Source: Escherichia phage vB_vPM_PD06
Length of the DNA: 64,000 nucleotides
Sequence record: NC_052653.1
Reading direction: 5' to 3' (one strand)
In this document: in pieces, positions 8,308 through 64,000 of the stretch
Numbering within the stretch: the stretch's first letter is position 1
Layout of the letters: the number at the start of each line of letters is the position of its first letter
Program-made: the position numbers and the translations under genes
The notes under the pieces: model-generated
Seen by the model: the letters and a program-made list of their open reading frames with translations, nothing else
Told to the model about the DNA's origin: nothing
Database searches by the model: none

Positions 8308-8352
8308 TTAATGAATATAGTTTACTTTATTTTACCAGGTTTGCAAGTAGTT

Positions 8353-8568
8353 TTATGAAATAATTGTCAAAGTAAAATCATAATCTTTTGACAATTTATA
8401 TTGCACCTTGTTACCGTATATGTCACCTTTACGTAAAGATCCACGGATACCGATAACATCCTTCACGTCTTTTAAATTTTTCACGCCTGTAATGTCTTTG
8501 TTGAAATACTCGTCATCTGAAAATAAAACTTGACTTGCATTTTTTAACAGTGTGCGGATATTAGCCAT
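8353..8568 (-). CDS. Hypothetical protein (71 aa; start moved to internal ATG)
   Basis: Track ORF start overlaps the element; ATG at 8568 (MANIRTLLKN) has GAGAGAG RBS. Confidence 0.5.
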   Translation of the reverse strand: MANIRTLLKNASQVLFSDDEYFNKDITGVKNLKDVKDVIGIRGSLRKGDIYGNKVQYKLSKDYDFTLTIIS

Positions 8569-8588
8569 TTTGATAATCTCTCTCACTA

Positions 8589-8629
8589 GGGGCGGCACTA
8601 TTGCCGCCCTATGCATTACATTTTACTGA
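8589..8629 (-). repeat. Conserved box+hairpin intergenic element
   Basis: GGCGGCA-CTAT-TGCCGCC then CTATGCATTACATTTTACTGA. Confidence 0.6.
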
Positions 8630-8655
8630 TTTTAGTTATCTTGTCAATATTATTT

Positions 8656-8883
8656 TTAGTTTAATTGATCCAGGCACAACAAGCGATCAACATTTAGATC
8701 GGTTAGGCTAATCGTTGGCACCTGGTAGGATTCGATGTACTCAACGCTCGACCATTGCCCGAAATTAGCGACCGCCCAGCTATTCAAGGAAGAGTGAAGA
8801 TCATCGCCTTTCTTCTCGGTGATAACTGCTACTACCTGGGAGATTCCAACCGTACCGGATACGCGAACAATAACGATAGCCAT
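8656..8883 (-). CDS. Hypothetical protein (75 aa)
   Basis: Six-frame ORF. Confidence 0.6.
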   Translation of the reverse strand: MAIVIVRVSGTVGISQVVAVITEKKGDDLHSSLNSWAVANFGQWSSVEYIESYQVPTISLTDLNVDRLLCLDQLN

Positions 8884-8906
8884 AATGATAACCTTTCTTT
8901 GATTTG

Positions 8907-8947
8907 GCGGGAAACCATTTCCCGCCCTATGTGATAAACTATACCAG
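8907..8947 (-). repeat. Conserved box+hairpin intergenic element
   Basis: GGCGGGAAA-CCA-TTTCCCGCC then CTATGTGATAAACTATACCAG. Confidence 0.65.
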
Positions 8948-8974
8948 ATTAAAAAACGTTGTCAACTGTTTTTA

Positions 8975-9214
8975 TTACATTCCTACCATAGCGGCACGGA
9001 TTGCAGTTTTACTATACTTGAAACCATCAGGTGTATGAGTGATTCCGTCCTGTTTTAATCTGTAGCACATTAGATCCGCCGCTTTATCTTTATTGCCACA
9101 CTCATTTATTAAACCTACAGCGTATAAGTATAACGATTCATCGTTATTAATCCAAAGGCTTACATTCCAATGAGTTTTGTTTTTGTGACCGTTGTACATT
9201 TTAGATTTAGCCAT
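8975..9214 (-). CDS. Hypothetical protein (79 aa; start moved to internal ATG)
   Basis: ATG at 9214 (MAKSKMYNGHK); longer track ORF overlaps the element. Confidence 0.5.
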   Translation of the reverse strand: MAKSKMYNGHKNKTHWNVSLWINNDESLYLYAVGLINECGNKDKAADLMCYRLKQDGITHTPDGFKYSKTAIRAAMVGM

Positions 9215-9237
9215 GATGTTAATCTCTTTTTCAGTGA

Positions 9238-9278
9238 GGCGGGAACTATTCCCGCTCTCTATGTAATACATTTTACGC
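9238..9278 (-). repeat. Conserved box+hairpin intergenic element
   Basis: GCGGGA-ACTA-TTCCCGC then TCTCTATGTAATACATTTTACGC. Confidence 0.6.
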
Positions 9279-9303
9279 TTTTTATTCGTGCTGTCAATGC
9301 TTT

Positions 9304-9669
9304 TTATAAATCTTTTTTACGTTTAACATCGCTTGCATGACTGTATACAGCGATCCCATTATCACGGCAAAAACGGGAAAGATACGCGCCGCGTGAAAAC
9401 TCTTTACCTTCCATATTAACAACCTTGCTAAACTCTTCCAGGGCAACGGTATCAAAATGATCACCATAACCATATTGAAACGGAACGTTAACGACTTCAA
9501 TCAGTTTACCGCCGATCTCAACGTCAACCATCAAAGAGAAATAAGTATTACCATACGACTTTTGAAACCAGCGACGGGCGCTAATATGTACCGCTTCAAT
9601 GCTGGATAGCTCAATTTTAGCAGTGTTAGCCAGGGTAGCATAAGCAGAAACATTGATATTTTTAGCCAT
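9304..9669 (-). CDS. Hypothetical protein (121 aa)
   Basis: Six-frame ORF with consensus sigma70 promoter upstream. Confidence 0.65.
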   Translation of the reverse strand: MAKNINVSAYATLANTAKIELSSIEAVHISARRWFQKSYGNTYFSLMVDVEIGGKLIEVVNVPFQYGYGDHFDTVALEEFSKVVNMEGKEFSRGAYLSRFCRDNGIAVYSHASDVKRKKDL

Positions 9670-9706
9670 GATTTTATTCCTTAGTAACGCTTTAATTTAT
9701 ATAAGC

Positions 9707-9734
9707 ATTATAGCTTACTGATTTCAGGTGTCAA
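9707..9734 (-). promoter_or_regulatory. Consensus sigma70-type promoter (leftward)
   Basis: On - strand: TTGACA (9734-9729), 16-bp spacer, TATAAT (9712-9707). Confidence 0.6.
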
Positions 9735-9756
9735 GTGATTTTTTATTTCACTTTAT

Positions 9757-9792
9757 GGGGCGTTGCCCCGTTCTATGTGGTATATATTACGG
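9757..9792 (-). repeat. Conserved box+hairpin intergenic element
   Basis: GGGGC-GTT-GCCCC then GTTCTATGTGGTATATATTACGG; lies upstream of the sigma70 promoter, i.e. at the 3' side of the preceding gene. Confidence 0.55.
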
Positions 9793-9815
9793 TGCTTGTT
9801 TGCATATGTCAAGCC

Positions 9816-10370
9816 TTACACAATGCAATTTTCATAATTTTTTAAGGCTTGTCTTTTTTCCTCTTCCGTCGGCATGTATGGCTGGATCTCTTCCTCTTCC
9901 AGGGTAGGCATGATTTCTTCCTCTTCCTCCTGGTCGCCCTGGTCTTCCTCTTGCGCTATGGTAACAAGTTTATTGATCTTCTCCTGGGCTTTAATTAGTT
10001 TTGCATCTAGCACCATTTTAGCGGTGTTGTATACAGTCCATGCCATGCGCTTTTCTGCGTATGCCTTATCTAGTGCGGCTAATTTAGCGGGATACTCTTC
10101 CAACACCTTAAAAGCCGGATCAATGCTGTACAAGGGATTATTTTTAGCGTCATCGCTTGGATCTGCGGCGCTTGCAATGTCAGCGTTACCATTCGCCAGC
10201 CATCCAGGGCGAACGGATCTCGTCCTGGTGTTGCCGTTGCTCTTTGCCGCTCGATTTCCTATCTGCTCCCCGCTATACCCTACCATGTGATCGATCATGT
10301 CATCTGGTATTATGCGCGGATCATTTGCGTCATGCTTTACCCAGGACTGGATCACATATTCACGCCCCAT
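9816..10370 (-). CDS. Hypothetical acidic protein (184 aa)
   Basis: Six-frame ORF; Glu-rich C-terminal region. Confidence 0.65.
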   Translation of the reverse strand: MGREYVIQSWVKHDANDPRIIPDDMIDHMVGYSGEQIGNRAAKSNGNTRTRSVRPGWLANGNADIASAADPSDDAKNNPLYSIDPAFKVLEEYPAKLAALDKAYAEKRMAWTVYNTAKMVLDAKLIKAQEKINKLVTIAQEEDQGDQEEEEEIMPTLEEEEIQPYMPTEEEKRQALKNYENCIV

Positions 10371-10371
10371 G

Positions 10372-10632
10372 TTAGTTCGCCTCTTCTGTTAGTAGTTTAC
10401 ATACCTTAAACATGCTTGCCGCGTCTTTTGACGGTAGCCAGCCTATCCGATACACTCCAGGATCTGGATTAGTTACATCAGTCAGTTGCGCGTTACGATG
10501 ATTAAAAATAGTGTAACCGCCGCCAGCACGGGGATAAACATTATCTTTAAACCTGATAGCGTATCTCGCCAGGTCGAACGTTGTAGCATGTTCAAAAGCG
10601 ATCACATTATCAAAAACTTTTAGAAAAAACAA
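10372..10632 (-). CDS. Hypothetical protein (86 aa; TTG start)
   Basis: TTG start at 10632 preceded by GGGGAGGATAATC RBS. Confidence 0.55.
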   Translation of the reverse strand: MFFLKVFDNVIAFEHATTFDLARYAIRFKDNVYPRAGGGYTIFNHRNAQLTDVTNPDPGVYRIGWLPSKDAASMFKVCKLLTEEAN

Positions 10633-10668
10633 GATTATCCTCCCCAGCGTTTAAAGCCCGTTGCACGG

Positions 10669-10782
10669 TTATTTTTTAACTCTCGTTTTAGTCTCTTGCA
10701 ACGGTTTACAAGTGCAAACCGTGCCGGAGTCGTAACAGTAGCGCCGTTTTTGGTGTGGATACTCATTACATATTGTTTCATA
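10669..10782 (-). CDS. Small basic peptide (37 aa; not in ORF track; weak)
   Basis: ATG at 10782; MKQYVMSIHTKNGATVTTPARFALVNRCKRLKREVKK; weak RBS. Confidence 0.2.
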   Translation of the reverse strand, partial: YETICNEYPHQKRRYCYDSGTVCTCKPLQETKTRVKK

Positions 10783-10790
10783 AAGTTTTA

Positions 10791-10835
10791 CCCTATGTAA
10801 GCGGGAACAATTCCCGCTTTAAGATAGCTTATCAG
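10791..10835 (-). repeat. Variant box+hairpin element (hairpin splits the box)
   Basis: CCCTATGTAA + GCGGGAACAATTCCCGC + TTTAAGATAGCTTATCAG. Confidence 0.45.
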
Positions 10836-10859
10836 GTTTTAGTGCAATGTCAACCGTTT

Positions 10860-11222
10860 TTATTCGTAAATTTTACCGCTTTCTACCCATACCATAACAC
10901 GGCGCATGTTATCCCATGCATCTTGTCGCAGATTTAAGGCATGCAATTCTTCCGTGGTGCTCATACCTGGAACGGGCTTGCTATATGTTACAAAGAGATC
11001 GCCAGCATATTCATAAGCCAGGGTAAGATCACATTGAATCATCTTTTTAATCATAGCATCAAGCATCATATTAGCGGCATGTTGATCACGTTTCAGCGGT
11101 AACGTTGCGATCTGTGTGCGATAGCTTTCGATCCGTGCATCCACTGCATCACGCGAAAGGTTTTTCACGTCATCGCGGAAAGATACCAGATTAAACATGA
11201 TAGTATTGATTTGCTTGCTCAT
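10860..11222 (-). CDS. Hypothetical protein (120 aa; start moved to internal ATG)
   Basis: ATG at 11222 (MSKQINTIMFN) with AAGGG RBS; longer track ORF overlaps the element. Confidence 0.55.
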   Translation of the reverse strand: MSKQINTIMFNLVSFRDDVKNLSRDAVDARIESYRTQIATLPLKRDQHAANMMLDAMIKKMIQCDLTLAYEYAGDLFVTYSKPVPGMSTTEELHALNLRQDAWDNMRRVMVWVESGKIYE

Positions 11223-11244
11223 TGCATTACCCTTTTTTTGTTTT

Positions 11245-11287
11245 GGCGGGGAAGTATTCCGCCGCCCTATGTGATACATCTTATCAG
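11245..11287 (-). repeat. Conserved box+hairpin intergenic element
   Basis: GGCGGGG...CCGCC hairpin then CTATGTGATACATCTTATCAG. Confidence 0.6.
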
Positions 11288-11325
11288 TTTAAAAAACGTT
11301 GTCAAGAATATTTTTAAAAATAATT

Positions 11326-11607
11326 TTAGCTGTATGATCCGCACCGCTCGCAATAGTGATCATCGTCGTCATCTGCCACCTGGCTGATAAAATGATCTAC
11401 CTTTGTTTTTAGGTTATTGTAATTGTTTTCTACTTCCTTTAGTCGTTCCTGGTAGTATTCCAGGGCTTCAATATACGCCGCCTCTTCTGTTTTTTCACGC
11501 ATAGCTAAATTCATGCCGCGCGTATCATCATACAGCCAAAAGCCATCGGTGCACTCACTCATTGAAAGAGTAGGGCTTAACTCTTTATGACTAATTACCT
11601 TGCTCAT
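11326..11607 (-). CDS. Hypothetical protein (93 aa)
   Basis: Six-frame ORF; C-terminal CERCGSYS. Confidence 0.6.
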   Translation of the reverse strand: MSKVISHKELSPTLSMSECTDGFWLYDDTRGMNLAMREKTEEAAYIEALEYYQERLKEVENNYNNLKTKVDHFISQVADDDDDHYCERCGSYS

Positions 11608-11617
11608 AGTGTGCGCC

Positions 11618-11722
11618 TTATAGAATGATTGAAATAATAACTGACACTACAATCCAAAAGGGAACGGCAAGAATGATAGCGTTAATCGTTCCAACCGTCA
11701 AGCTATTCTCTTTCTTGATCAT
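11618..11722 (-). CDS. Small hydrophobic leader peptide (34 aa; not in ORF track)
   Basis: MIKKENSLTVGTINAIILAVPFWIVVSVIISIIL; first ORF downstream of the leftward sigma70 promoter. Confidence 0.3.
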   Translation of the reverse strand: MIKKENSLTVGTINAIILAVPFWIVVSVIISIIL

Positions 11723-11850
11723 CGTTATCAACCTTTTATAAGTAATGTTATTGTGACGGTGGATTGTGGAGATCCTCACCTTTGCCCGTCTTGCATTGCA
11801 CCCGCCTATTGTTTATTGTCGTTGTGCCTTGCCCCCCCTCGACAAGATGA

Positions 11851-11879
11851 ATACTACGCTACCAGGTGAGGAACGTCAA
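11851..11879 (-). promoter_or_regulatory. Sigma70-type promoter driving the leftward array
   Basis: On - strand: TTGACG (11879-11874), 17-bp spacer, TAGTAT (11856-11851). Confidence 0.5.
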
Positions 11880-11989
11880 CCATTTTTTTAATCTTTTTTC
11901 ATTTCTTTTTTGCTTGCTATATATGAAGGAAACGGCTATCATCTTTCTACCGCGCCAACCAGGGCGCACAACAAAGAAAGGGCGATACC

Positions 11990-12256
11990 ATGACAAATAC
12001 TCCTTTACATCTCATGTACTCACTGGGCTGGCAAGGCGGCACGGTGCACCAGGTAGCAAGCGCAACGGGCTTAAAGGTTGAAACCGTTCTCAACCTGGGC
12101 GATCATAAGGTGGAAGAGATAGATCATTTTGATACGTTCGCAAATGGTTATCTATGGGCTTGCAGTGGCGGCGGGGAAAGCAAGATCCCACCAGGGGCGC
12201 GGGGCGACATGTATTTTTGGTTAGGTGTCCTATCCTGGCAAGAAAACAAAAAATAA
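11990..12256 (+). CDS. Possible small protein (88 aa), uncertain
   Basis: Six-frame ORF in the divergent control region; weak RBS; overlapping alternative frames. Confidence 0.2.
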   Translation: MTNTPLHLMYSLGWQGGTVHQVASATGLKVETVLNLGDHKVEEIDHFDTFANGYLWACSGGGESKIPPGARGDMYFWLGVLSWQENKK

Positions 12257-49490: not shown

Positions 49491-52400
49491 ATGGGAGCTT
49501 TTACTTTCGACATTGAAAGTAACAACTTGCTTAATGACGAAAGTGTAGATTACTTGGCAAGTCCATATCGTTTAAAAGATAGTTTTGCAATGCACTGTAT
49601 TGTGTGCGAAAGTCATGATACTGGAGAGATTATTGCTTTCCATGATGGTGATAAATATCTTTTCGATGGTCGTCCGTATATTGAGACTGACGGAAAGTAT
49701 GAATACCGACTGGAGGAATATGAGCATTTAGAATATACCCATTTCCCTCTTAAAGATTTTCCTGATTTTGTAAATGGAACAGGTAAATTTAAAGGTAATT
49801 CAAACTATAAAATTACCAAAGTAGTTGGACACAACATCATTAACTTCGACTTACTGGCAATTAAATTATTTTTTAAACTCAACTACAGTATTAAGTACAA
49901 TACTTGGGGTAATAGTAACATTGAAATTTGTGATACTATGATCTTAAGTAAGACACTAAACCCTGATCGCTTCGGTGGTCATAGTCTGGCAGAGTTATCT
50001 AAGAAAGCTGGAGGGGATGTTAAAATTGATTTTAGAAAAAACATTCCTGAAACTGAAAGATTTAGAACATTTGCAGCAGATATGCTGTATTACTGTATTT
50101 ACGATAACAAAGCTAACACCGCAGTGTTCCGTTATTTGATGGAAGAGTGGGGTGATTATAACAAGTGGTCTGAACCATTTAACTTAGAACAACGTGTAGC
50201 TGATATTATTACACGTCAAGAGCACCGTGGCTTTGCTTTCAATATGAAACAAGCAGAAGATAATATTCGTGATCTGGATGCTCGAATGGAAGCATGTCGT
50301 TTAGAGGCAGAACCTGTGCTACCTCCTAAACCTGCTACTAAAGGTTATTTGAAATCATTCATTCCACCTAAACTACAGTTTAAAAAGAATGGTGAGCCTT
50401 CAAGTAACATGATAAAGTTTGCAGAGAAACATTCTGGTGAACTTGTACAAAAAGAAGATGGTTGGTGGTTATTTGCATTAGGTAAAGAGTTTAAACTACC
50501 TATTCCAGCAGAAGAACCTATTTGTGATCCTACAGTACCTGCTACTTTAGACGACACTACACATATTAAAAATTGGTTAGTTGGTTTAGGTTGGAGTCCA
50601 TCTGAATATAAAGATAAAGATATCACTCTTAAATCTGGCACTAAGATTAAGAAAGATGAAGCACAAATGGAGAAAGCTATTCGTGACTATGTTGATCAAA
50701 CATTAGCATCTAACTTCTGCCAGGATAGATGTGATCATCTGGAGTGCACACCAGAAACTTTGGAATGGAAACTAAGAGATCGTATTGCTAAAGCTAAAGG
50801 TCGTGGTGTTAAAGTGCTTACTAACCCTTCCTTTACAAAAGGGCAAGAGAAGGATATTTGTCCTAACTTGGAAGCACTGGGTGAAAAGTTCCCTTATGCT
50901 ACGCAGATTGTGCAGTATCTTACGTATAAACATCGTAGAAACTCTATTCTAGGTGGTGGTGCTGATTGGGAAGAGGATGAAGAGGATTACGATAAAGGTT
51001 ATCTGGCGGCAGTAAGAGCTGATGGTCGTATACCAACTCCTGCTGCAACGTGTGATGCAGCTACGTCTCGTATGAAACATAGGTTAGTAGCAAATATCCC
51101 ACGTGTAACATCTCTGTACGGATATGAAATGCGTAACTTATTTGGTGTAGAAGTTCCAAAATACTTCCAAATTGGTTATGACTTTGATTCTCTTGAGGCA
51201 AAAATAGAATCACACTACTGTGTACCTATGGATGCACAAGCACTAACCCGTAAAGGTTGGGTTGGTTATCACGATCTACAAGAAGGGGATGAAATCTTAG
51301 GATATAACCCAGAAACAGGACTTAAAGAATGGACTAAAGTAAAAGGTAAGGTCTTCTATAAAAATAGTAAGACGTTTGAGATTAAAGGAAAATCCCATAC
51401 TTATCGTGCAACAGCAGATCACCGTTGGTATGTTAATACTCGTAGTACAGGGAATACTTATGTGCCTAAAGTCAGAACAACTGCCGAGCTTTGCACAGGA
51501 GATAACATTATTTGTAATGCTCCATTTAACATGGAACAAGATCAAGTAAATAGTTTAACTTCTGTTCAACAAGGTAAATGGGATGTTCCGTGGGTAGAAC
51601 GTGTAGTTAATATGTCTCATGCCGAGCGTGTGGCTTTCTTGGAAGGTTTTTTGATTGCGGATGGTTACTGGCACAAACATAAACAAAAACCTGTTTGGCG
51701 CTGGGCGCAGAACCCAGGAGAACTTTTTGAAGCAGCCTTAACTGCCTCATACCTGGTTCATGGGGGTAATATTTCTGTAGCCTTCAATACGAAAGACCAG
51801 AAAGTAAAAGTGGCAACGTTGGCTAACCGCTCTCACATCCCTGTTCAAAGTCTGACTATTGAAGAATGGGGTGTAGAAGATGTTTGGTGTCCACAAACAG
51901 AACTCGGTACATGGGTTATGCGTCAGAAAGACTGCATCACGATTACAGGGAATTGTTGGCGGTACGAGCAGGAACCACACGAATATTGTAATGCTCTATT
52001 GTTGGAAAAACCTAATGATGTTCATACAATGATGGCTCGACGTATTTCTGACACTATTGGTCGTAAGTTTGAACGAAGCCCTGCTAAATCTGTTAAGTAT
52101 GGTATTACTTATGGTGCTCAAGCTGCAAAAGTAGCAAAAACTATAGGTAGTGATATGTATACAGGACAGCTTGTATACGATGCTTTCTGGGAAGCTGCAA
52201 AACCTCTTGCGCTTCTTAAAGAACGTCTGCATGACTTTTGGGTTAAAACAGGTAAGAAATACATTCTTGGTATTGATGGTAGGAAAGTACCTACACGATC
52301 TGCACACGCAATACTTAACTCTCTGTTCCAGAGTGGTGGTGTTATTTGTGCAAAAAGAGCAATGGTTATCTACGATGATCTTATCGAAGAAGAAGGATTA

Positions 52401-52805
52401 GCTGTTGACTTTTTTGTTGATGACTGGAAAAATAAGTCATTCGTTCAACAAATGATTGCATATCACGATGAAGCACAGCTTGAAGTAACTCGTGATCTGG
52501 TGCATTTTAAATGGTTCTCTAAAGAATCTTTAGGTTGGACTCAAGTTGATGATCCAGAAGAACAAAAGAAAATTGATAAAGAATGTTTGGATAAAGTTAA
52601 TGCCTGGAAAGAAGAGGAAGAGAAACGTACTGGCAAGATTTGGGCTAACGTACATGAATCTCCGAAAGGTGGTTGGTTTACAGCCTACAGTCGTGCTGGA
52701 GAATTAGCATCTATCGCTGTTAATAAAGCTGGTGAGTATTACAATCTTAATGTACCTCTAACTGCTGGTTACGATGTTGGTAGTTCATGGTCAACTTGTC
52801 ACTGA
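49491..52805 (+). CDS. Family A DNA polymerase, intein-containing precursor
   Basis: Exo I TFDIES; motif A GYDFDSLEAKIESHY; motif B RSPAKSVKYGITYGAQ; motif C IAYHDEAQ. Confidence 0.85.
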   Translation: MGAFTFDIESNNLLNDESVDYLASPYRLKDSFAMHCIVCESHDTGEIIAFHDGDKYLFDGRPYIETDGKYEYRLEEYEHLEYTHFPLKDFPDFVNGTGKFKGNSNYKITKVVGHNIINFDLLAIKLFFKLNYSIKYNTWGNSNIEICDTMILSKTLNPDRFGGHSLAELSKKAGGDVKIDFRKNIPETERFRTFAADMLYYCIYDNKANTAVFRYLMEEWGDYNKWSEPFNLEQRVADIITRQEHRGFAFNMKQAEDNIRDLDARMEACRLEAEPVLPPKPATKGYLKSFIPPKLQFKKNGEPSSNMIKFAEKHSGELVQKEDGWWLFALGKEFKLPIPAEEPICDPTVPATLDDTTHIKNWLVGLGWSPSEYKDKDITLKSGTKIKKDEAQMEKAIRDYVDQTLASNFCQDRCDHLECTPETLEWKLRDRIAKAKGRGVKVLTNPSFTKGQEKDICPNLEALGEKFPYATQIVQYLTYKHRRNSILGGGADWEEDEEDYDKGYLAAVRADGRIPTPAATCDAATSRMKHRLVANIPRVTSLYGYEMRNLFGVEVPKYFQIGYDFDSLEAKIESHYCVPMDAQALTRKGWVGYHDLQEGDEILGYNPETGLKEWTKVKGKVFYKNSKTFEIKGKSHTYRATADHRWYVNTRSTGNTYVPKVRTTAELCTGDNIICNAPFNMEQDQVNSLTSVQQGKWDVPWVERVVNMSHAERVAFLEGFLIADGYWHKHKQKPVWRWAQNPGELFEAALTASYLVHGGNISVAFNTKDQKVKVATLANRSHIPVQSLTIEEWGVEDVWCPQTELGTWVMRQKDCITITGNCWRYEQEPHEYCNALLLEKPNDVHTMMARRISDTIGRKFERSPAKSVKYGITYGAQAAKVAKTIGSDMYTGQLVYDAFWEAAKPLALLKERLHDFWVKTGKKYILGIDGRKVPTRSAHAILNSLFQSGGVICAKRAMVIYDDLIEEEGLAVDFFVDDWKNKSFVQQMIAYHDEAQLEVTRDLVHFKWFSKESLGWTQVDDPEEQKKIDKECLDKVNAWKEEEEKRTGKIWANVHESPKGGWFTAYSRAGELASIAVNKAGEYYNLNVPLTAGYDVGSSWSTCH
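51219..51953 (+). mobile_element. Intein (about 245 aa) with LAGLIDADG-like motif, after Pol motif A
   Basis: Begins CVPMDAQALTRKGW; TxxH block TADH; LEGFLIADGYW; ends ITITGN + Cys (non-canonical GN; C-terminal boundary approximate). Confidence 0.65.
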
Positions 52806-52832: not shown

Positions 52833-53429
52833 ATGCTTACCGTGTATGGTGAAGGTATTAATGATTTGGAAGGCGAGAGTACACTACCTGGTAGTAAGAA
52901 ACTAACGCCGCATTATATGAAATGGATGGCTATGTTGGGGAGGTGTTACTCCCCTTGTCAACAAGAACGTGATCCTTGTTATAAGGGGGTGACGGTTTGT
53001 GAAGAATGGAAGTTGTTCTCCAATTTCTATTCCTGGTTGCAAACTTGGGATAACTGGGAAAACTTAGAACTTGATAAAGATATTATAGGAGGGAGAGTTT
53101 ACTCTCCCGATACCTGTCTTTTAGTAACAGGAGATCTTAATAAGTTCTTAGCTTATAGAGTAAGTAAAAGATCTCATGGGACTATGGTAGGCTGTAGTTA
53201 CGAGAAAGATCGTAAAAAGTATAAAGCCAACATAAAAGTAGGCAGTCGCATGAAAACGCTGGGACGTTTTAATACTGAAATTGAAGCGCATCTTTGCTGG
53301 TTGAAAGCTAAGGCAGAGCAGCTTACAAAATTCTTTGAAACTGAAGATGAAAGAGTTGTTCCACATCTTAAAGCACTATGTAATGAAATGCTTGAGCATG
53401 TAGAACAACATAAAGAGTGGACACGATAG
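52833..53429 (+). CDS. AP2-like DNA-binding protein, possible homing-endonuclease relative
   Basis: KYKANIKVGSRMKTLGRFNTEIEAHLCWLKA resembles AP2 domain; no catalytic motif identified. Confidence 0.4.
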   Translation: MLTVYGEGINDLEGESTLPGSKKLTPHYMKWMAMLGRCYSPCQQERDPCYKGVTVCEEWKLFSNFYSWLQTWDNWENLELDKDIIGGRVYSPDTCLLVTGDLNKFLAYRVSKRSHGTMVGCSYEKDRKKYKANIKVGSRMKTLGRFNTEIEAHLCWLKAKAEQLTKFFETEDERVVPHLKALCNEMLEHVEQHKEWTR

Positions 53430-56229: not shown

Positions 56230-56617
56230 CAACGGTATGAATTTGGACTCTGGTCTGTCTCCAAAGATTTCTATGGCACGACTGGAACAAGTTACTGGTC
56301 TTCGTCAAGTAAGTAATGGCGGTAAGATTATTCGTGATGACGCTGTACCTTTTAATAAATTTCAGATTGAACGTCACTACGATCCTGTAACTGCAAGTCT
56401 TACTGGTGTAACTTTCTCAGGTTATCGTACTGCTGGATACCAACGTAAGGTTGTAGCTGAACGTATTAAGAGTCGCAAACAGAAAATTGCAACATTGAAG
56501 AAACTGGTAGAGAAAGATGTTTCAGAACTTCTTAACTTGTATGAAACTCTTGAAACAAAAGGTGAAAATCATAAACTCTTCTCTAAAGAAGATGTGAGCG
56601 TAATTTTCACTGATTAA
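56186..56617 (+). CDS. Hypothetical protein (143 aa)
   Basis: ATG after GGAGGAACG; 44-nt out-of-frame overlap with MTase 3' end. Confidence 0.55.
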   Translation: MSTLNSKITLKALINNGMNLDSGLSPKISMARLEQVTGLRQVSNGGKIIRDDAVPFNKFQIERHYDPVTASLTGVTFSGYRTAGYQRKVVAERIKSRKQKIATLKKLVEKDVSELLNLYETLETKGENHKLFSKEDVSVIFTD

Positions 56618-56620
56618 GAT

Positions 56621-56655
56621 AAAAGAAAAGGAGCCAATAGGCTCCTTTTTGTTTA
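56621..56655. terminator. Bidirectional terminator between convergent units
   Basis: A-run, GGAGCC-AATA-GGCTCC, T-run. Confidence 0.6.
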
Positions 56656-58539
56656 TGTAACATTGACTGTAAATCTGACAAGAGGTGATAACACGTCATT
56701 ATCAGCATCATAATGTGCAACATCAAACACTGCTGTACCTGCTGCAAACCCGTATTGTTCAACCTGATCTGCATAAGTAAATGTGTAAGTGTTAGTATCA
56801 AGAGTTTGTTCTGTAAGAATTGCTGCTGTGAGGACGTTTACATTTCGGAAGTAATGTTTGGTATATCCTGCTGGTTCCCAAGAAATAATTGCATCTTGGT
56901 TAGCTTGTCTTACAGCGGCTCCTCCTGTTGGAACAGCCATATCAACCCAAACAGGTGACGTTGATGTTAGGTCTGTACCGTCTGCTGCTGATTTAGCAAG
57001 TTTTGTAGCTGCTGTCTGGTATATAGAAGAAATATAATGGATACGACCATCAATACCTTCTTCATAAACATAACCACTGTAGCGTTCAGCACCATCCACC
57101 CAAGAACCAATGATAACATCGTCACGTGCTGTAGAGATGGTTCTTTGTACATTTCTGTATTTCTGCCAATCCACACCATTAACTTCTACACCATATAGAT
57201 AAGAACGTCCTAGGATCTGCCAAACAATTTTTGCTTGAGAAGCAGGAACTATTGTACGCATCTTATCAAAGATAGCTATCGTAGCATCATGGTAACGTGT
57301 AGTGTTACTGTATCTACCTGCAACAGTCGAAGATGCTGATACAGCATCATTTTCACCTTGTCCCCAAATAATTGCTTTAACCTTACTTGCATAAGGTGTG
57401 ACTTTAGTGATAAAGTTAGTTAAGCATGGCCCGTCTGCTGTGTTATCCAGATCATACCAGTAGTTGTCTGGTGTACCTGTTCCGGCTTTATCATCTGCAT
57501 ATTTATCTGCTGCTGACGATCCAGAAGCTGCATTTAACGGAAGAACTTCAGCATTTGCTAAACCACGTTGCGTAGCATATGCATTACGGGTTGTTGTGCT
57601 ACTCATTGCTGCTTTATTTGCACCAGATAATTCTGTAAAGTGTGCATTTACGTTATCTTGTCCAGCAAAGACAATAACTTCTTTAATGAATGAATCATCT
57701 GTAGCTATTGAGTTATTAAAGATAACGGCTGCTGCTTTGGTGCTCTTAACGCTAATTTTAAGGTATGTTGGAGCAAACCCATAAAGAGGAATAGAGTCAG
57801 AGATATCAAAGTAGGCGTAAGTATTCGTGGTTGTTGTAGTCCACTGGACACTGTTATTACTTAAATCTAATACTTCTACAGTATAAGTATCACCATCTAG
57901 CGGATCAGCTACATCCCAAGCAACACGAATGTCTCCATAGCTGTTTGCCACGGCTGTTACATTAGAAATAACAGGAACAGCATTAACACCTAAATAAGAA
58001 CTATCAGAGGCCACCACTGTTCCTTGATAAGTTGCAGTGCAACCTATACGGCAACTGCCATCTTTAAGAGCAGTTATTAATCCTGTAGGACTTACAGTAG
58101 CTACTTCTGGATCTGTTGTGGTGTACGTAATTACCATATCTGGAAGGTCTTTAGCACCTTCTGGACTGATTGTAGCAACCAATTGTTGAGTAGTTCCTGC
58201 ATCCATAGCAGACAGACTTTCAGTGTACACACTTAATTCTGAAGCATAGCCACCAGATTGATCAGTTAAGACAGCACCTAAATTATTTTTAGCTGTCATT
58301 ATTGCATCAAAACCGCCTTCAGCAACAAACTCCATCATACCGTTATTATCTATAACCATTTTGGTATTATCTGAAGATGAAAAAGCTATATCAAATAACG
58401 CACCATCTTCTGGTGAAACTGTGTATGTCAGTTGCTTTTTACTACCAACTATTGCAATACCAATAGAGGAAGTGGTTATAGATGTAGCTGTTACTACTGA
58501 AGCTGATGTTGTTGACATAAATAAAGGAATAGGATACAT
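56653..58539 (-). CDS. Tail fiber/tailspike protein with Ig-like and SGNH/SASA esterase-like domains
   Basis: Big_2-like repeats; GQDN and WGQGEND resemble sialate O-acetylesterase motifs. Confidence 0.55.
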   Translation of the reverse strand: MYPIPLFMSTTSASVVTATSITTSSIGIAIVGSKKQLTYTVSPEDGALFDIAFSSSDNTKMVIDNNGMMEFVAEGGFDAIMTAKNNLGAVLTDQSGGYASELSVYTESLSAMDAGTTQQLVATISPEGAKDLPDMVITYTTTDPEVATVSPTGLITALKDGSCRIGCTATYQGTVVASDSSYLGVNAVPVISNVTAVANSYGDIRVAWDVADPLDGDTYTVEVLDLSNNSVQWTTTTTNTYAYFDISDSIPLYGFAPTYLKISVKSTKAAAVIFNNSIATDDSFIKEVIVFAGQDNVNAHFTELSGANKAAMSSTTTRNAYATQRGLANAEVLPLNAASGSSAADKYADDKAGTGTPDNYWYDLDNTADGPCLTNFITKVTPYASKVKAIIWGQGENDAVSASSTVAGRYSNTTRYHDATIAIFDKMRTIVPASQAKIVWQILGRSYLYGVEVNGVDWQKYRNVQRTISTARDDVIIGSWVDGAERYSGYVYEEGIDGRIHYISSIYQTAATKLAKSAADGTDLTSTSPVWVDMAVPTGGAAVRQANQDAIISWEPAGYTKHYFRNVNVLTAAILTEQTLDTNTYTFTYADQVEQYGFAAGTAVFDVAHYDADNDVLSPLVRFTVNVT

Positions 58540-58555
58540 TTAATCTCCTTAAATA

Positions 58556-58578
58556 ATAAGCCCCCGAAGGGGCTTTGA
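58556..58578 (-). terminator. Intrinsic terminator (leftward)
   Basis: GCCCC-CGAA-GGGGC followed on - strand by TTATTATTT. Confidence 0.45.
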
Positions 58579-60549
58579 TTATGTGCGTTTAGCAACAATA
58601 GCATCCACGTAATCGCCAACACCACAATATGTTAGTTGTAGTATTGTTACTCCGTTAGGATCTGTATTAATATCACTGGAACCAATTACTTTGTAAGATG
58701 GATCTAAAGTAACAGTACGACCTCCAGTGGCATCTTGGATAAGATAAACTATTGCAGAGAATGGTTTAGGTTTTGTACTATCTTCGACACCAGGCCATGC
58801 TTTTATAGTAGCGTTACCAGTAAGATTCAACACATTCATGTTATGTGTTCCTGGAGGTGTCCAGTCCCCTGTAACAGAATTGTTGGTATATGCTGTAACC
58901 TCTATAAAATTAGTTGTTACTTTTGTTGGAACTATATCTTGACCATCTACAGAATTAGTGAGTTCTTCCCATGCCCCATCTTTACGAGCATAAGTCTTAC
59001 CATCACTAGGTGCATCTGTGATACTAGGTAGTGTACCTTGAGAAGTCCAGACAGTTGCAGATGTTTTTAAGAACACCTCGCCAGTGGAGATATTAAAGGC
59101 ATAATCACCTTGTTTACCATCACTAGAGATTGGATCTGTTGTTTTAACAATCCAAGTTGCACCGTCTGTACCGTTAGTACCAGCGTCACCTTTCTCACCT
59201 TTTTCACCCTTATCACCTTTCAAACTACCCATATCTACATATTCAGCAGTTTGAGTTTGTTCATTATAGGTGTAAATGTAAAGATGACCTGTATCTTCCG
59301 TCAGATAAGCATCACCGTAATTGGCTGTAGGAGGAAGCGCACTTGCAGACGCAACGTGTCCTTTTGCAGTGATTGGAGTACCAGCTAAACGACCAACATT
59401 TGTCCACTCTGTGGCTCCTTGCAACCAGACCCAAAGTTCATTATTGATCAGATAACCATCACCCTCTTCTCCAGTTTGTGGTAGTTCAGAAGTGTTAGTC
59501 AGAATGTCAATAATGGTCAACCCTGCACCAGTTGGCCCCGTCAAGCCTTGTATACCCTGTGCACCTTGATCACCCTTGTCTCCCTTATCACCTTTTTCTC
59601 CTTTCAGAGAGGCAATATATTCGTCAATAGTACCAACGTTACCAGCATTTAACCAGACTTGATAAGCTGAATCACCAGTGTTACCCTTATCACCTTTGTC
59701 GCCTTTATCTCCTTTTGGCCCCACTATAGCACCCATATTGATCCATTCTACACCGTTTGACACGTATAGATATGTACCAACACTCCATGCTTGAGATGTG
59801 TTTCCATGAGATGCAGAAGGAAGATCTGAAACGGAATTAGCTGCGCCTTGGTAATCAAAACCATTAGCATTATTACCTGGCACACCTTGTGGCCCCTCTG
59901 GGCCAGGCTCCCCTTTATCACCTTTAATTGAAGCAAGATAATCTAGTTCTGTACCTTCATTTCCTGCTGCAAGCCATACTTCATAAGCAGATTTACCTTC
60001 TGGCCCCTGTGAGTTTACTTTTCTCCAAGCAGTACCATCCCAAGCATACATATTCTCGCCTACAATCCATGCATCCCCTGCATTGTTTCCACTTGTAGGT
60101 AATTGGTTGGTATTAGATAGTGTCCCTAATAGCTTTAATGGAGCACCTGGATCACCTTTTAAAGAAGCCAACCACTGTGTCTCAGTACCTTGGAAACCAT
60201 TGTCTACGGCAATCTGGTAAGCTGATTTACCAGCTTCTGGGATGGATTCTCTAAGATCTTCAATTTCAGCTTCAATAGCATCTAATTCTGATTCTATTTG
60301 AGCAATGTCATCTGCATTACCCACATTTTTCCAAGCTGTATCTGAAATCCCTCCAGTAGATGTAGGAGTAGAGTTAGCAGGTACAACTTTAGGTAGAGAA
60401 CCTTTCCACTGATAGTAGTTACCGTCAGCTTCAAAGAGCAATGCTTCACGAGCATCTCTTAAGGTAAAACCACTTGCAAAACTTCTACGCTTTCTATAGC
60501 GAGACTCTACCATGTCTGCAATGGCACTATTTGGACGTGTTAAAATCAC
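58579..60549 (-). CDS. Tail fiber protein with collagen-like Gly-X-Y repeats
   Basis: GDKGEPGPEGPQGVPG, GPKGDKGDKGDKGNTG, KGEKGDKGDKGDQGAQGIQGLTGPTG, GDKGEKGEKGDAGTNGTDG. Confidence 0.7.
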   Translation of the reverse strand: MILTRPNSAIADMVESRYRKRRSFASGFTLRDAREALLFEADGNYYQWKGSLPKVVPANSTPTSTGGISDTAWKNVGNADDIAQIESELDAIEAEIEDLRESIPEAGKSAYQIAVDNGFQGTETQWLASLKGDPGAPLKLLGTLSNTNQLPTSGNNAGDAWIVGENMYAWDGTAWRKVNSQGPEGKSAYEVWLAAGNEGTELDYLASIKGDKGEPGPEGPQGVPGNNANGFDYQGAANSVSDLPSASHGNTSQAWSVGTYLYVSNGVEWINMGAIVGPKGDKGDKGDKGNTGDSAYQVWLNAGNVGTIDEYIASLKGEKGDKGDKGDQGAQGIQGLTGPTGAGLTIIDILTNTSELPQTGEEGDGYLINNELWVWLQGATEWTNVGRLAGTPITAKGHVASASALPPTANYGDAYLTEDTGHLYIYTYNEQTQTAEYVDMGSLKGDKGEKGEKGDAGTNGTDGATWIVKTTDPISSDGKQGDYAFNISTGEVFLKTSATVWTSQGTLPSITDAPSDGKTYARKDGAWEELTNSVDGQDIVPTKVTTNFIEVTAYTNNSVTGDWTPPGTHNMNVLNLTGNATIKAWPGVEDSTKPKPFSAIVYLIQDATGGRTVTLDPSYKVIGSSDINTDPNGVTILQLTYCGVGDYVDAIVAKRT

Positions 60550-60560
60550 TTTACTACTCC

Positions 60561-60592
60561 TTTTATAAAGGGGCGAAAGCCCCTTTTAATTA
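60561..60592. terminator. Terminator hairpin (GNRA loop)
   Basis: GGGGC-GAAA-GCCCC flanked by A/T runs. Confidence 0.5.
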
Positions 60593-63004
60593 AGCATTAT
60601 TGACAGTAACAAAAGTAACAGGGTTCAGAGCTTTAATTTGTGTATTCTCTGCTGTAGGTGTTACAATTGGATCTGCAATATCTATTGTGTACAAACTATT
60701 TGTCACATATGTAGCACGTGCTATAGTTGTCACAAGATCGCCGCCATTTGCACCTGCACCTGGAATAACAATCTTAGTACCTGCTGCTTTAGCGTAGCCA
60801 TTACTAGCCCAGTTTAAAGCATTAGACTGTAGATAGGTTTGACCTGTAACAGTTGCTTTTATTTTCTCATTATCACTAAAGAAAGCACCACCTGCTGTAA
60901 CAACGTGTTTTTTACCGCTTGCACAATGAATAACTGTTCCAGTAGGGAAGTCACGCCCACCTGGGAATTCATCATAATCTGTAAAATATTGTTCAGAAAT
61001 AGTGGTTAAGACTGGCCCACGATGACCTGTACCATCAACAGCAGTTGGAACACCAAAGTTATTTCCAACCTGATCGCAACGATCCGTGTAGATTTTAGCA
61101 AAAGAAACTGTTGTTTCATCTCCGCTAAGTGCTGTACATCCTACCCACTTCATATAAGTGAATTGGCTGCGAGTATAGAAACCGCCACCACTTCCTTCTC
61201 CGCTCCCGTGTTGACCAATAAAGTCAATACTACGGCAACGAATATTATTAAAAGTAGAGCTAGATGGTAGCCCACGCCATTTAAAATCATTACAATTGAT
61301 GTTACTAACAATTGTAGAGTTTTCCCAGGCGTCTGATCCAGCCGTTGCAATCTCAATCGAAGATTCTGGAATATCCAAATTCTTAATTGTAAAGTTAATT
61401 GGTGGCCCCGCATATCTTCCACCGTTAACACCCCAGTCAATAAAGACCATGCGTGTTGAAACAGACGGATCATTAAGCAGATAACCAGTTAAACCATCAA
61501 CTTCAAAGTCTTGGCATCCGTATAATGCAACACCACAAGTAGTTAAACCTGTACCTGTTGAAACTGCTGTGTTAGGATAAACTTCGTTATCACGTATTGT
61601 GAAGTTTTTACCCATTTCAACGTGTAGACATTGACGGCAATTGTAAACTCTATTTCCAACGATACTGAAGTTACGTACATATTGTGAATCAGGAGCATCA
61701 ACACCATATGGGCCACTACCTGCTACACCAATACCAATACCCCAGTTTGCACCTTGTCCAGAAGCATCTACGTTAGCAATGTGGTTATTCTCGATGATCA
61801 AACCTTCAGTGTAGTGTCTTTGAACTACGTTAAGTTCAATAGCATCACCTTTAATATCGTGAATATAGTTGTTAGAGTAACGCCCATAGGTCATTACTTC
61901 TCCAGTACCTTGTTGCAGGATCGCATATTTACAACCATACATTTCGTTGTAACTGAAGTCCAACGTACCTTCACTTGTCATTGCTTGCATTAAAAATGCT
62001 GCTGTAGATGTTGCGTTGGAGAAGATATTACGATAGAATCGGCAATCACCACCTAACATCTTAACATAACATTTTTCAAAGCGAACGTTTTCAATCCAAC
62101 AGGACACAGTAGAAATCATTGTTCCACCGTTACCAGTGAATGTACCACCATACCAACGAATACCAGACATAGCAATTGAGCTTGTGAATCTATAATTCTT
62201 ATCTGCACGTACTTGAATGTTATTCGTGTTAGCGAAAGTAATGGTTTTTAGAATTGCTTGAGTATCATCGGTAACTCCATCACCAATTGCACCAAACTGC
62301 TCAGGCGTTACAAAGTATTGAGCTTGTAACAGGTTGCCTCCAGATGGAAGACCAACCATTGCTGCACCAGTGGTAGATGACAAAAGGTTTTTCTCTACGT
62401 AAGAAGTAGAGGCTGTTGTTTTACCAATAAAAGCAAACAATTTGTTAGGTAGACCAGTAGACGGATCTAAACCTAATGGTTCTGCCAGAATAATTTTACT
62501 ATCTTTGATAGTAAATGCTTCACCTTGAATCTGAATTACACCGTTAATGGTGACAATAGCATTATCAAAGATATAAGGAGGACTGATTTCTGTTTCATAT
62601 CCTGTAGCACCTTTAAAATACCAAGGATACACATCTGAAGCTAACTGTTCAGTTTTAAGAGCGTACAGAGTCCAGTTACTGTCCCCTACAGGTGTGCCCC
62701 GCATAGGTACAGGGTTCGCAGTAGTGGCAGATGGGGCATAATAGTACCCACTCAAGATACCGTTTTCAAAATAACGTAACTGGTTAAATACAGTTTCAGT
62801 TGATCCTGCTGACCAAGCAACAGGACTCTTAAAGAAGAAGTTATCAACAAGTGCTTTACGCAGTGTAGGTATTAAACCTGTTTCGGTTTCTACAGTTGCT
62901 GTAGCATCCCCATTAATAACATCATGCATCTGGTTAGACGAGAATATAACCAGATCAACACCTTGTTCTAGTGTCGTAGCAGGATATGTTGGAAAATTCG
63001 CCAT
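60590..63004 (-). CDS. Large tail fiber/tailspike protein (804 aa), beta-helix-like
   Basis: Gly/Asn/Thr-rich repetitive beta-strand composition typical of receptor-binding proteins. Confidence 0.5.
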   Translation of the reverse strand: MANFPTYPATTLEQGVDLVIFSSNQMHDVINGDATATVETETGLIPTLRKALVDNFFFKSPVAWSAGSTETVFNQLRYFENGILSGYYYAPSATTANPVPMRGTPVGDSNWTLYALKTEQLASDVYPWYFKGATGYETEISPPYIFDNAIVTINGVIQIQGEAFTIKDSKIILAEPLGLDPSTGLPNKLFAFIGKTTASTSYVEKNLLSSTTGAAMVGLPSGGNLLQAQYFVTPEQFGAIGDGVTDDTQAILKTITFANTNNIQVRADKNYRFTSSIAMSGIRWYGGTFTGNGGTMISTVSCWIENVRFEKCYVKMLGGDCRFYRNIFSNATSTAAFLMQAMTSEGTLDFSYNEMYGCKYAILQQGTGEVMTYGRYSNNYIHDIKGDAIELNVVQRHYTEGLIIENNHIANVDASGQGANWGIGIGVAGSGPYGVDAPDSQYVRNFSIVGNRVYNCRQCLHVEMGKNFTIRDNEVYPNTAVSTGTGLTTCGVALYGCQDFEVDGLTGYLLNDPSVSTRMVFIDWGVNGGRYAGPPINFTIKNLDIPESSIEIATAGSDAWENSTIVSNINCNDFKWRGLPSSSTFNNIRCRSIDFIGQHGSGEGSGGGFYTRSQFTYMKWVGCTALSGDETTVSFAKIYTDRCDQVGNNFGVPTAVDGTGHRGPVLTTISEQYFTDYDEFPGGRDFPTGTVIHCASGKKHVVTAGGAFFSDNEKIKATVTGQTYLQSNALNWASNGYAKAAGTKIVIPGAGANGGDLVTTIARATYVTNSLYTIDIADPIVTPTAENTQIKALNPVTFVTVNNA

Positions 63005-63345
63005 TAATTTTTGTCCTTACTTTGTGTGCGCTTTGTAATCTCCTCTAGCATTAATTGAACAGGAGCATTTTTTAAATCCATTATTTTTTCAATCTTCTGT
63101 TCTAAGGCAGTATTATTTGCCATTAATGTAGAGTTGATCTGGTTAAGCATTTGAGCAAGTTCTGCTTTGGTAGCATAAGTGGATTCAACAAACACCAACT
63201 TCTTTTCTAGTTCACGGTATTTCTCTTCCATTTTGTCCAAATCACTTGCCATATCATCTATCTTCTGTTTGAAGACCACCCAGATTACACCAATAAGAGG
63301 GATAATCGCCTCTTTAGCGATATCCCATACTTCTGTTAGCTCCAT
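63004..63345 (-). CDS. Hypothetical coiled-coil protein (113 aa)
   Basis: N-terminal hydrophobic segment then coiled coil. Confidence 0.5.
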   Translation of the reverse strand: MELTEVWDIAKEAIIPLIGVIWVVFKQKIDDMASDLDKMEEKYRELEKKLVFVESTYATKAELAQMLNQINSTLMANNTALEQKIEKIMDLKNAPVQLMLEEITKRTQSKDKN

Positions 63346-63354
63346 ACATTACCC

Positions 63355-63906
63355 CTATTTCTTAGGTCTTGTAGGCCAAGTTATATTAGGTGCATCTTCA
63401 ACGTTAATTTGAATCAGTGTTGCACGATATAGTTTAACTTTTCCTAACCAATCTTTTTGTTCTTGAGATAAACCTTGTAATTCCTCTAAATCTTGAATCG
63501 CAGACACTTGATTCGTAGCCCAAGTTAACTCCTTTTCTAACTTAAGAGTAGCATCTTCAATAGCAAGACTATTGTGAGGAACAAATTTACCTTCAACATA
63601 TTGCCAAGAGCCAATATTACTTTCATCTTCTATTTTATCTGGTGCATTATATGTAACTAAAATAGATTGTCCGGCAGGGAAATAGGTAGTAACATCTTTA
63701 GTAGCACCACGTACAATATTATTATCATCTAAGGTAATGAAATAAGCGTCGGGATATTCAGCCATCAAAGTTTTTTGAAGTTGATACCAATCATTACCAT
63801 CCTTGTCTTGCAAAAAACCACCGCCAACAGAAAGATAAAGAATGTTCTCCTCTGTTAATTCCGGTTCGTACAATTCAAAACCTGTAAAAATAACATCTTT
63901 TTTCAT
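63355..63906 (-). CDS. Putative tail fiber assembly/chaperone protein
   Basis: AAGGAGAG RBS; C-terminal region resembles Tfa-like chaperones. Confidence 0.45.
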   Translation of the reverse strand: MKKDVIFTGFELYEPELTEENILYLSVGGGFLQDKDGNDWYQLQKTLMAEYPDAYFITLDDNNIVRGATKDVTTYFPAGQSILVTYNAPDKIEDESNIGSWQYVEGKFVPHNSLAIEDATLKLEKELTWATNQVSAIQDLEELQGLSQEQKDWLGKVKLYRATLIQINVEDAPNITWPTRPKK

Positions 63907-63915
63907 AGACTCTCC

Positions 63916-64000
63916 TTATGAAACGTTGGTTACTGTTATCCAGCTACCATTAATATAATATTGTAGCGGGGCTGACCAATACCAAGCACCACGAAGTTCT
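63916..64000 (-). CDS. C-terminal fragment of a leftward gene truncated by the window edge
   Basis: Open frame from window end to TAA at 63918-63916 (...YYINGSWITVTNVS*). Confidence 0.4.
   Translation of the reverse strand, partial: ELRGAWYWSAPLQYYINGSWITVTNVS

Follow-up and report, generated by a model that had tools for sequence, protein, structure and literature searches.

A SASA-like domain with aspartate at the nucleophile position in the conserved phi92-type tail gene block of Escherichia phage vB_vPM_PD06

Introduction

Phages of the phi92 type are among the coliphages with the broadest host range and are candidates for phage therapy. The multivalent adsorption apparatus of phi92 was reportedly described by Schwarzer et al. 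in 2012. Here we analyse the corresponding late tail genes in a 64,000-nucleotide stretch of the genome of Escherichia phage vB_vPM_PD06 (NC_052653.1), referred to below as the window, and in particular a modular tail protein of 628 residues, encoded on the minus strand at 56653-58539, which contains a domain of the SASA/SGNH type. An earlier note on this DNA, made from the sequence without database searches, had interpreted this protein as an esterase.

Several described proteins provide points of comparison. The SASA/DUF303 esterases 1ZMB from C. acetobutylicum, 2APJ (Arabidopsis At4g34215) and 3PT5 (E. coli NanS) have the serine of a GQSN motif where the window's protein has an aspartate; in the latter, moreover, the aspartate of block V is shifted, the Pfam score falls below threshold and the domain lies between FN3-like domains. 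For phage G7C gp63.1, a tail fibre, O-antigen deacetylase activity is reported (Prokhorov 2017, as cited in PMC8594841); this esterase tailspike (PDB 4QNL) is only distantly related to the 628-residue protein, which lacks the serine. Closer in organisation is gp65 of phage N4 (PDB 9LC0 and 9YF4), which shares with it a repeat unit of FN3, SASA-like and FN3 domains. However, gp65 has 1382 residues, two SASA-like copies, an N-terminal domain that is associated with the N4 glycan receptor (NGR) and carries a GMSHY motif, whereas the window's protein has a single copy and an N-terminus formed by a pair of immunoglobulin (Ig)-like domains. Together with gp64, gp65 forms a sheath on a podovirus tail. 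The analysis makes it probable, in our judgement, that the locus is a conserved phi92-type block whose SASA domain has no catalytic role and acts instead in carbohydrate binding or as a spacer.

Results

Catalytic residues of the SASA-like domain

The earlier note based its esterase assignment on the strings GQDN and WGQGEND. Both are present, at residues 293-296 and 392-398 of the 628-residue protein, but the first differs from the GQSN of the family at the catalytic residue itself. This emerged from 80 copies of the SASA-like domain, which were extracted and aligned so that the catalytic columns could be compared. The consensus of these copies, GQSN ... W.QGE.D ... (D..)H, is the SASA pattern, and the GQSN of the family profile aligns to GQSNM of 2APJ, the serine of which we take to be the nucleophile Ser31. 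The nucleophile column holds serine in 58 of the 80 copies and aspartate in eight. The eight comprise the window's protein, a long allele 94% identical to it (P0006), one unrelated copy and a set of five relatives that are about 45% identical and of which Avunavirus phage 18-1-2, with GGDN, is representative. GQDN is also found in BME3, J-01, ALITA and phi92.

The alignment and a structural model both place Asp295 (codon 57655-57657, minus strand) at the position of the SASA/SGNH nucleophile; the modelled Asp295 opens the helix after strand 287-293, which is the canonical location. Block III, WGQGEND, is kept, with Trp392, Gly395, Glu396 and Asp398 each at least 90% conserved. Block V reads IDGRIHY, so that His501 is present, with glycine at -3 and aspartate at -4. 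In two of the GGDN relatives (P0001 and P0003), the histidine of block V is replaced by glutamine. As judged from these alignments, the nucleophilic serine is shown as replaced by aspartate and the presumptive triad aspartate as displaced, with the QGExD block and the histidine retained.

Since the key serine is absent, a classical serine O-acetylesterase function is unsupported. Absence of the catalytic residues on alignment, named in the earlier note as a refuting outcome, has thus, for the key residue, gone against the suggestion that the protein deacetylates a surface polysaccharide, at least by the standard serine mechanism, which the position of the block V aspartate, away from -3, does not favour either.

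The domain is nevertheless not decaying. Over residues 275-525, the pairwise ratio of non-synonymous to synonymous substitution rates (dN/dS) is 0.06-0.11, corresponding to 3-5 non-synonymous and 11-17 synonymous changes, a pattern that points to purifying selection. The low ratio, together with the retention of the aspartate in two myovirus genera and across about 55% divergence, argues for a retained function other than classical serine catalysis.

Architecture and fold of the 628-residue protein

The protein opens with the short peptide MYPIPLF, followed by two Big_2 Ig-like domains (nucleotides 57982-58497), an FN3-like domain (57709-57972), the SASA/SGNH-fold domain with its degenerate active site (56980-57681) and a C-terminal FN3-like domain (56659-56919), all on the minus strand. 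A full-length AlphaFold2 model was built from 23 sequences, with a mean predicted local distance difference test score (pLDDT) of 90.4. It has a disordered N-terminal peptide, β-sandwiches at residues 15-100, 103-186 and 190-277, an α/β domain at 287-520 and a further β-sandwich at 541-627. The Ig-like repeats described in the earlier note are borne out both by these three N-terminal sandwiches and the C-terminal one and by the Pfam Big_2 match, which covers two stretches with an E-value of 2e-12; on the model, Big_2 was detected on the second sandwich (103-186).

gp65 aside, proteins with Ig and FN3 repeats dominated the Foldseek search with the full-length model, and for this reason a model of the SASA-like domain alone was made (pLDDT 94.6). 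Its best match was again N4 gp65, with a template modelling (TM) score of 0.8, followed by SGNH esterases. The predicted structure thus shows the domain to have kept the α/β/α esterase fold of the SGNH hydrolases. By sequence the relationship is more distant: the match to Pfam SASA (PF03629) scores 15.0 bits, below the gathering threshold of 24.8, although seven of ten scanned family members pass that threshold. The family profile matches 1zmb with an E-value of 1.5e-4; a single-sequence search of the PDB with a canonical family member (P0047) returned only gp65 and sub-threshold matches to TesA. The family is small. When 1.84 billion representatives were searched exhaustively with HMMER, only 75 relatives were found, and a word-indexed search with the C-terminal 437 residues of the protein gave only five proteins.

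Relationship to N4 gp65

Homology to gp65 is indicated by phmmer (E-value 1e-24), by profile comparison (1e-105) and by Foldseek (1e-30); the two proteins are 21% identical over about 480 aligned columns, with a TM score of 0.59 relative to the query. Neither of the SASA-like copies encoded by the gp65 gene (N4 8044-12192) has a complete catalytic set. Copy 1 reads GESQ, in which the serine is kept, and is missing the segment that bears the histidine; copy 2 reads GINQ and IYY, placing glutamine and tyrosine at the serine and histidine positions. These degenerate copies suggest that SASA-like domains have repeatedly served as non-enzymatic building blocks in phage tails. Justusliebigvirus genomes also encode a gp64-like domain, at a site some 11 kb upstream that falls outside the window.

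Alleles of the third slot

The gene for the 628-residue protein occupies what may be called the third slot, after the genes for the colanidase tailspike and the collagen-like fibre, and the occupants of this slot differ in their distal modules. In BME3 and J-01, the protein has 939 residues and consists of the N-terminus, the Ig pair, the FN3-SASA-FN3 unit and a distal domain ending in GLKYYD. In the window and most of its close relatives, the protein ends after the second FN3 domain. In ALITA, the 3' part of the third-slot gene forms a separate open reading frame, and in phi92 a 226-nucleotide deletion at codon 197 and a 2-nucleotide insertion shift the frame and split the gene into gp152 and gp153, leaving only the Ig part (gp152) in frame. 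The gene is thus broken in phi92 and must be dispensable in at least one phage. The Phapecoctavirus third slot lies at the same locus and shares the N-terminal peptide and the Ig pair, but in place of FN3-SASA-FN3 there is an RCC1-like β-propeller; in phage Schickermooser, gp247 (891 residues) has the peptide MFPIPIF, the propeller, an Ig pair 62% identical to that of the window and a distal domain that again ends in GLKYYD. The 311-residue distal domain of the long allele has no Pfam match.

The stretches used for this comparison were window 56653-56960 (minus strand), L001 6054-8873, L006 9001-11820 and L007 3714-6389. They show that the window carries a short allele lacking the distal domain of some 310 residues present in BME3 and in Phapecoctavirus. 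The last 100 codons of the window's gene have diverged strongly from the long alleles, with a synonymous divergence (dS) of about 1. So high a value in the last FN3-like domain marks a recombination boundary and indicates mosaic recombination. A constant N-terminus and Ig pair with swappable distal modules typifies, as far as can be judged from these sequences, an accessory fibre concerned with receptor binding or decoration.

Genomic setting and operon layout

Comparison with deposited phage genomes by megablast identifies the window as part of a Justusliebigvirus genome (Stephanstirmvirinae; phi92-like myophages). The region 56600-64000 matched 54 records, 52 of which cover at least 80% of it at 95-99% identity; the top match, Escherichia phage vB_vPM_PD114, is 98.9% identical at the nucleotide level over the region. 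As expected, the base composition changes at about 56.6 kb, in keeping with a strand switch there. Five consecutive minus-strand open reading frames were confirmed in the open reading frame listing. In the direction of transcription, they encode a Tfa-type chaperone of 183 residues (63355-63906), a small protein of 113 residues (63004-63345), the colanidase tailspike of 804 residues (60590-63004), the collagen-like tail fibre of 656 residues, which has a GTG start (58579-60549), and the modular tail protein. The first four are orthologues of phi92 gp148, gp149, gp150 and gp151, in that order, and the last corresponds to gp152 and gp153 taken together, with 96.8% nucleotide identity. Gene order and orientation are the same in phi92, and the flanking genes for a methyltransferase and a polymerase with a putative intein are likewise common to phi92 and the window.

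AGGAG-type ribosome-binding sites precede the genes for the 183-, 656- and 628-residue proteins. The genes for the 113- and 804-residue proteins have no such site; their reading frames lie close behind the gene before them or overlap it. Between the three large tail genes, each gap contains a GC-rich hairpin with a T-rich tail. As read from the sequence of the minus strand, the gap at 60550-60589 contains, in this order, a GC-rich hairpin (GGGGCTTTCGCCCC), a tail rich in T and the site at which ribosomes bind for the next gene, an arrangement resembling a terminator or attenuator; the gap between the fibre gene and the gene for the 628-residue protein has a terminator-like hairpin, AAGCCCCTTCGGGGGCTT, at 58558-58575 (minus strand), with seven pairs, five of them GC, and a T-rich tail. 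The equivalent gaps in Phapecoctavirus Schickermooser are annotated as terminators, and these hairpins may be partial terminators that tune expression. A bidirectional intrinsic terminator with a stem of 10-11 pairs and T tracts on both strands lies at 56625-56650, where it separates the leftward late tail block from the convergent, rightward early/middle genes. A scan for sigma-70 promoters returned 21 sites where 21.6 were expected, a background result that is uninformative for phage late genes.

The layout shows the block to be the promoter-distal end of a phi92-like late tail operon, transcribed leftward through the five genes. The general architecture proposed in the earlier note, a leftward late block encoding a tail protein with Ig-like and SASA-type parts, a fibre with collagen-like tracts, a tailspike and a chaperone resembling Tfa, agrees with these results, though the 113-residue gene between chaperone and tailspike was missing from its list. 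The block is already known from phi92 (gp148-gp153); it is highly conserved and adds no new system. Its conservation at 95-99% identity in 52 of the 54 records implies that it is a constant part of host recognition and not the variable determinant. The further statement that it sets host range therefore holds only in the sense that the block is one part of a multivalent kit; it is shown here to be a conserved part of the Justusliebigvirus multivalent adsorption apparatus.

The colanidase tailspike

The 804-residue protein had been described simply as a large tailspike, and a tailspike it is; it is not, however, a generic one, but can be equated, on homology, with the known colanic-acid glycosidase gp150, to which it is 98.6% identical over 804 residues. 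Residues 180-804 match the crystal structure in PDB entries 6E0V and 6E0W, 'Bacteriophage Phi92 gp150', with an E-value of 0, and there are matches to phrog_6117, colanic acid degradation (3e-270), and to Pfam TSP_Ig-like (1e-14). A segment is also similar to WcaM (6e-29). The protein is organised as an N-terminal adaptor (about residues 1-180), a β-helix glycosidase and a C-terminal Ig-like domain. The bond cleaved by gp150 is reported to be the β-1,4 Glc-Fuc linkage of colanic acid (PMC13450770).

One family, PHROG 4549 (869-residue tail fibres), matches both residues 9-116 of the colanidase and residues 529-656, the knob, of the collagen-like fibre. The two modules appear fused in one protein in other phages, a possible sign that gp150 and gp151 are physically connected.

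The collagen-like fibre

The 656-residue protein, 98.3% identical to phi92 gp151, begins with an anchor of the TSP1/Gp66 type at residues 11-77 (nucleotides 60319-60519), which scores 75.2 bits against Tail_spike_N (PF18668; cutoff 25) and matches the N-domains of tailspikes in the PDB with E-values of 5e-14 to 5e-7. A coiled coil follows at about residues 79-105. Repeated modules of the form 'SAYQ...WL.SLKG' are each succeeded by a Gly-X-Y tract, and there are four such tracts, all on the minus strand: six triplets at residues 210-227 (59869-59922), six at 277-294 (59668-59721), nine at 317-343 (59521-59601) and seven at 445-465 (59155-59217). The count of four given in the earlier note is therefore exact. 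At least one tract of five or more triplets arose in only 35 of 2000 composition-preserving shuffles of the protein, which places four tracts far beyond chance, and Pfam Collagen (PF01391) is matched with 35.2 bits, above its cutoff of 27.2. The protein also matches phrog_15437 with an E-value of 0.

Beyond the tracts, a foldon-like motif, DAPSDGKTYARKDGAWEEL, occupies residues 512-530 (58960-59016, minus strand), where Fibritin_C scores 19.4 bits, below its cutoff of 21, and a C-terminal knob lies distal to it. Conservation of the tracts, raised in the earlier note as a point that might overturn the collagen-like reading, proves to be general: tracts occur in all 120 listed homologues, and three or more in 119, although the selection of candidates by shared words may have favoured proteins with tracts. 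The motif DG..Y.R..G.W occurs in 49 of the same 120. Homologues at about 60% identity mostly have four tracts, with a triplet number ranging from 26 to 37, and tract 4 of the window has one extra GEK triplet relative to phi92, BME3 and ALITA, which leaves the glycine register intact. We infer that the fibre would be a trimer, held by the coiled coil, four collagen-like triple-helical segments and a foldon-like nucleus, with the anchor at one end and the knob at the other.

The short fibre, its chaperone and the 113-residue protein

At its right-hand end, the window includes the 3' end of a further minus-strand gene (63916-64000), which continues past the window. Its translation, ELRGAWYWSAPLQYYINGSWITVTNVS, aligns with the C-terminus of phi92 gp147, and its position agrees by synteny with BME3, phi92 and ALITA. 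In phi92, fibre III, a short tail fibre, has been assigned to gp147 by cryo-electron microscopy (PMC13450770). Directly downstream of this 3' end is the gene for the 183-residue protein, which matches Pfam Caudo_TAP (PF02413) with 39.1 bits against a cutoff of 22.1 and phrog_136, tail fiber assembly protein, with an E-value of 2e-39. The pair gp147/gp148 has been compared with GpS/GpU of phage Mu (PMC8594841). Because its gene adjoins that of the gp147-type fibre and because of the homology to Mu GpS/GpU, the chaperone most likely serves the short fibre. The earlier note was right about the Tfa-like chaperone, but the partner suggested by its listing after the tailspike is not the one indicated here; a role as chaperone of the tailspike was considered and rejected on the gp147/gp148 synteny and the analogy with Mu.

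The Tfa-like protein is only 80% identical to its phi92 counterpart, whereas the products of the neighbouring genes (gp149, gp150 and gp151) are about 98% identical. This difference suggests allelic exchange of the short-fibre/chaperone pair.

The 113-residue protein, 98% identical to gp149, matches phrog_15210 (E-value 3e-70) and, weakly, Rz-like i-spanins (2.5e-4). It has an N-terminal hydrophobic stretch and a predicted coiled coil, and is probably a small membrane or coiled-coil protein. Many records of relatives label the gp149 orthologue 'lipoprotein'. We reject this label: the sequence contains no cysteine, and the protein therefore cannot be a lipoprotein.

Insertions in the neighbouring region

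On the plus strand, the DNA polymerase gene at 49491-52805 contains an in-frame insert of 245 residues (51219-51953; junctions HY/CVPMD...ITGN/CWRY). The polymerase of BME3 lacks the insert but is otherwise 99.4% identical, and phi92 gp159 is equal in length to the polymerase gene of the window. The insert itself, which has no Pfam or PHROG match, looks like an intein. Between the polymerase and nucleotidyltransferase genes lies an open reading frame of 198 residues (52833-53429, plus strand) that matches phrog_953, HNH endonuclease, with an E-value of 2e-73; the corresponding stretches of BME3, phi92 and ALITA do not contain a 40-mer taken from it as a test. It is probably a free-standing homing endonuclease insertion.

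Discussion

The most likely role of the SASA-like domain, in our view, would be that of a non-catalytic carbohydrate-binding or spacer module in an accessory side fibre. In the 628-residue protein, the constant N-terminal peptide and two Ig-like domains would carry an FN3-SASA-FN3 unit borrowed from the N4 gp65 family, and the apt comparison may be with catalytically dead pseudoenzymes of the 'chi-lectin' type. gp150 cuts the colanic-acid capsule, and the gp151 fibre and the modular accessory tail protein would belong to the same adsorption apparatus. More specifically, the conserved pseudo-esterase may have become a lectin, keeping the phage attached to an acetylated surface glycan that it does not cleave, a proposal that we advance tentatively and that falls somewhat short of being probable; the less likely alternative to it, that we are dealing with the first SGNH-fold hydrolase to use an aspartate, is improbable.

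Several observations do not sit easily with a non-catalytic module. Ser305 is invariant in the 23-sequence alignment, and either it or Asp295 could conceivably support non-canonical hydrolysis. His501 and the QGEND block are kept in Justusliebigvirus, which is unexpected for a completely dead site, and one GenBank record names an orthologue 'tail carbohydrate esterase'. The predicted geometry of Asp295, His501 and the oxyanion hole is a matter of sequence register and secondary structure only. Finally, the 2026 cryo-electron microscopy study of phi92 places none of gp150, gp151 and gp152/153 in density (PMC13450770). An alternative, in line with the earlier note, is that the protein is an active carbohydrate O-acetylesterase, acting, for example, on O-acetylated colanic acid with Asp295 or Ser305 as a non-canonical nucleophile or general base. 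We think this decidedly unlikely. The nucleophilic serine kept by most copies of the domain is absent, the aspartate of block V is not at -3, the histidine is glutamine in two close relatives that also carry the aspartate, and the conservation of Ser305 does not extend to the SASA family at large. Moreover, to our knowledge, no SGNH hydrolase with an aspartate nucleophile has been described.

If the protein is not an enzyme, it could still be purely structural or decorative, an Ig protein with a spacer, resembling Hoc or lambda gpV, that would have no specific receptor and in which the SASA-like domain is an inert scaffold, as in the sheath of N4. The N-terminal Ig pair does resemble the Ig domains at the C-termini of major tail proteins (phrog_341, phrog_885 and phrog_41), and in the phi92 record it is annotated 'lambda protein V like fold'; a broken gene leaves phi92 viable, the window's allele does without the distal C-terminal domain, and gp65, one SASA-like copy of which has lost both serine and histidine, is a sheath protein. 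We regard this reading as doubtful, however, since a dN/dS of about 0.1 and a conserved aspartate in the former active site suggest a function that faces a ligand, and since the exchange of modules (RCC1 propeller, SASA, distal C-terminal domain) is typical of receptor-binding proteins. The gp65 homology might also be taken to mean that the 628-residue protein binds the N4 glycan receptor (NGR/NfrA), the more so because Justusliebigvirus depends on the wecB/nfrB-dependent NGR on K-12 (PMC8669472; PMC11990801). The homology is, however, limited to the FN3-SASA-FN3 unit, and the GMSHY motif, which gp65 has at residue 410, ahead of its SASA-like copies, occurs neither in the 628-residue protein nor in any of the six frames of the window. 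The segment associated with NGR, which gp65 shares with the myophages, is a short piece of a poly-GlcNAc-deacetylase-like domain with GMSHY, which in phi92 is in gp142 (bioRxiv 10.64898/2026.04.02.716166). Vequintavirus is NGR-dependent as well (PMC8669472; bioRxiv 10.64898/2026.04.02.716166), and myophages outside Justusliebigvirus and Avunavirus, Phapecoctavirus included, match only the Ig part of the protein. With GMSHY absent and NGR binding assigned to gp142, we reject the protein as an NGR/NfrA binder, a role that is improbable in the extreme; homology to N4 gp65 does not by itself confer one.

The candidacy of phi92-like phages for therapy means that correct labels on their tail genes matter. 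The label 'carbohydrate esterase' is spreading in annotations, and for a fold that lacks the catalytic serine the activity should not be assumed. The swapping of third-slot modules on a constant anchor could guide the engineering of receptor-binding proteins. If the conserved pseudo-esterase does hold the phage on its glycan as a lectin, then it and the degenerate copies of N4 gp65 would establish a class of phage tail modules, 'dead esterases' that act in receptor binding or as scaffolds.

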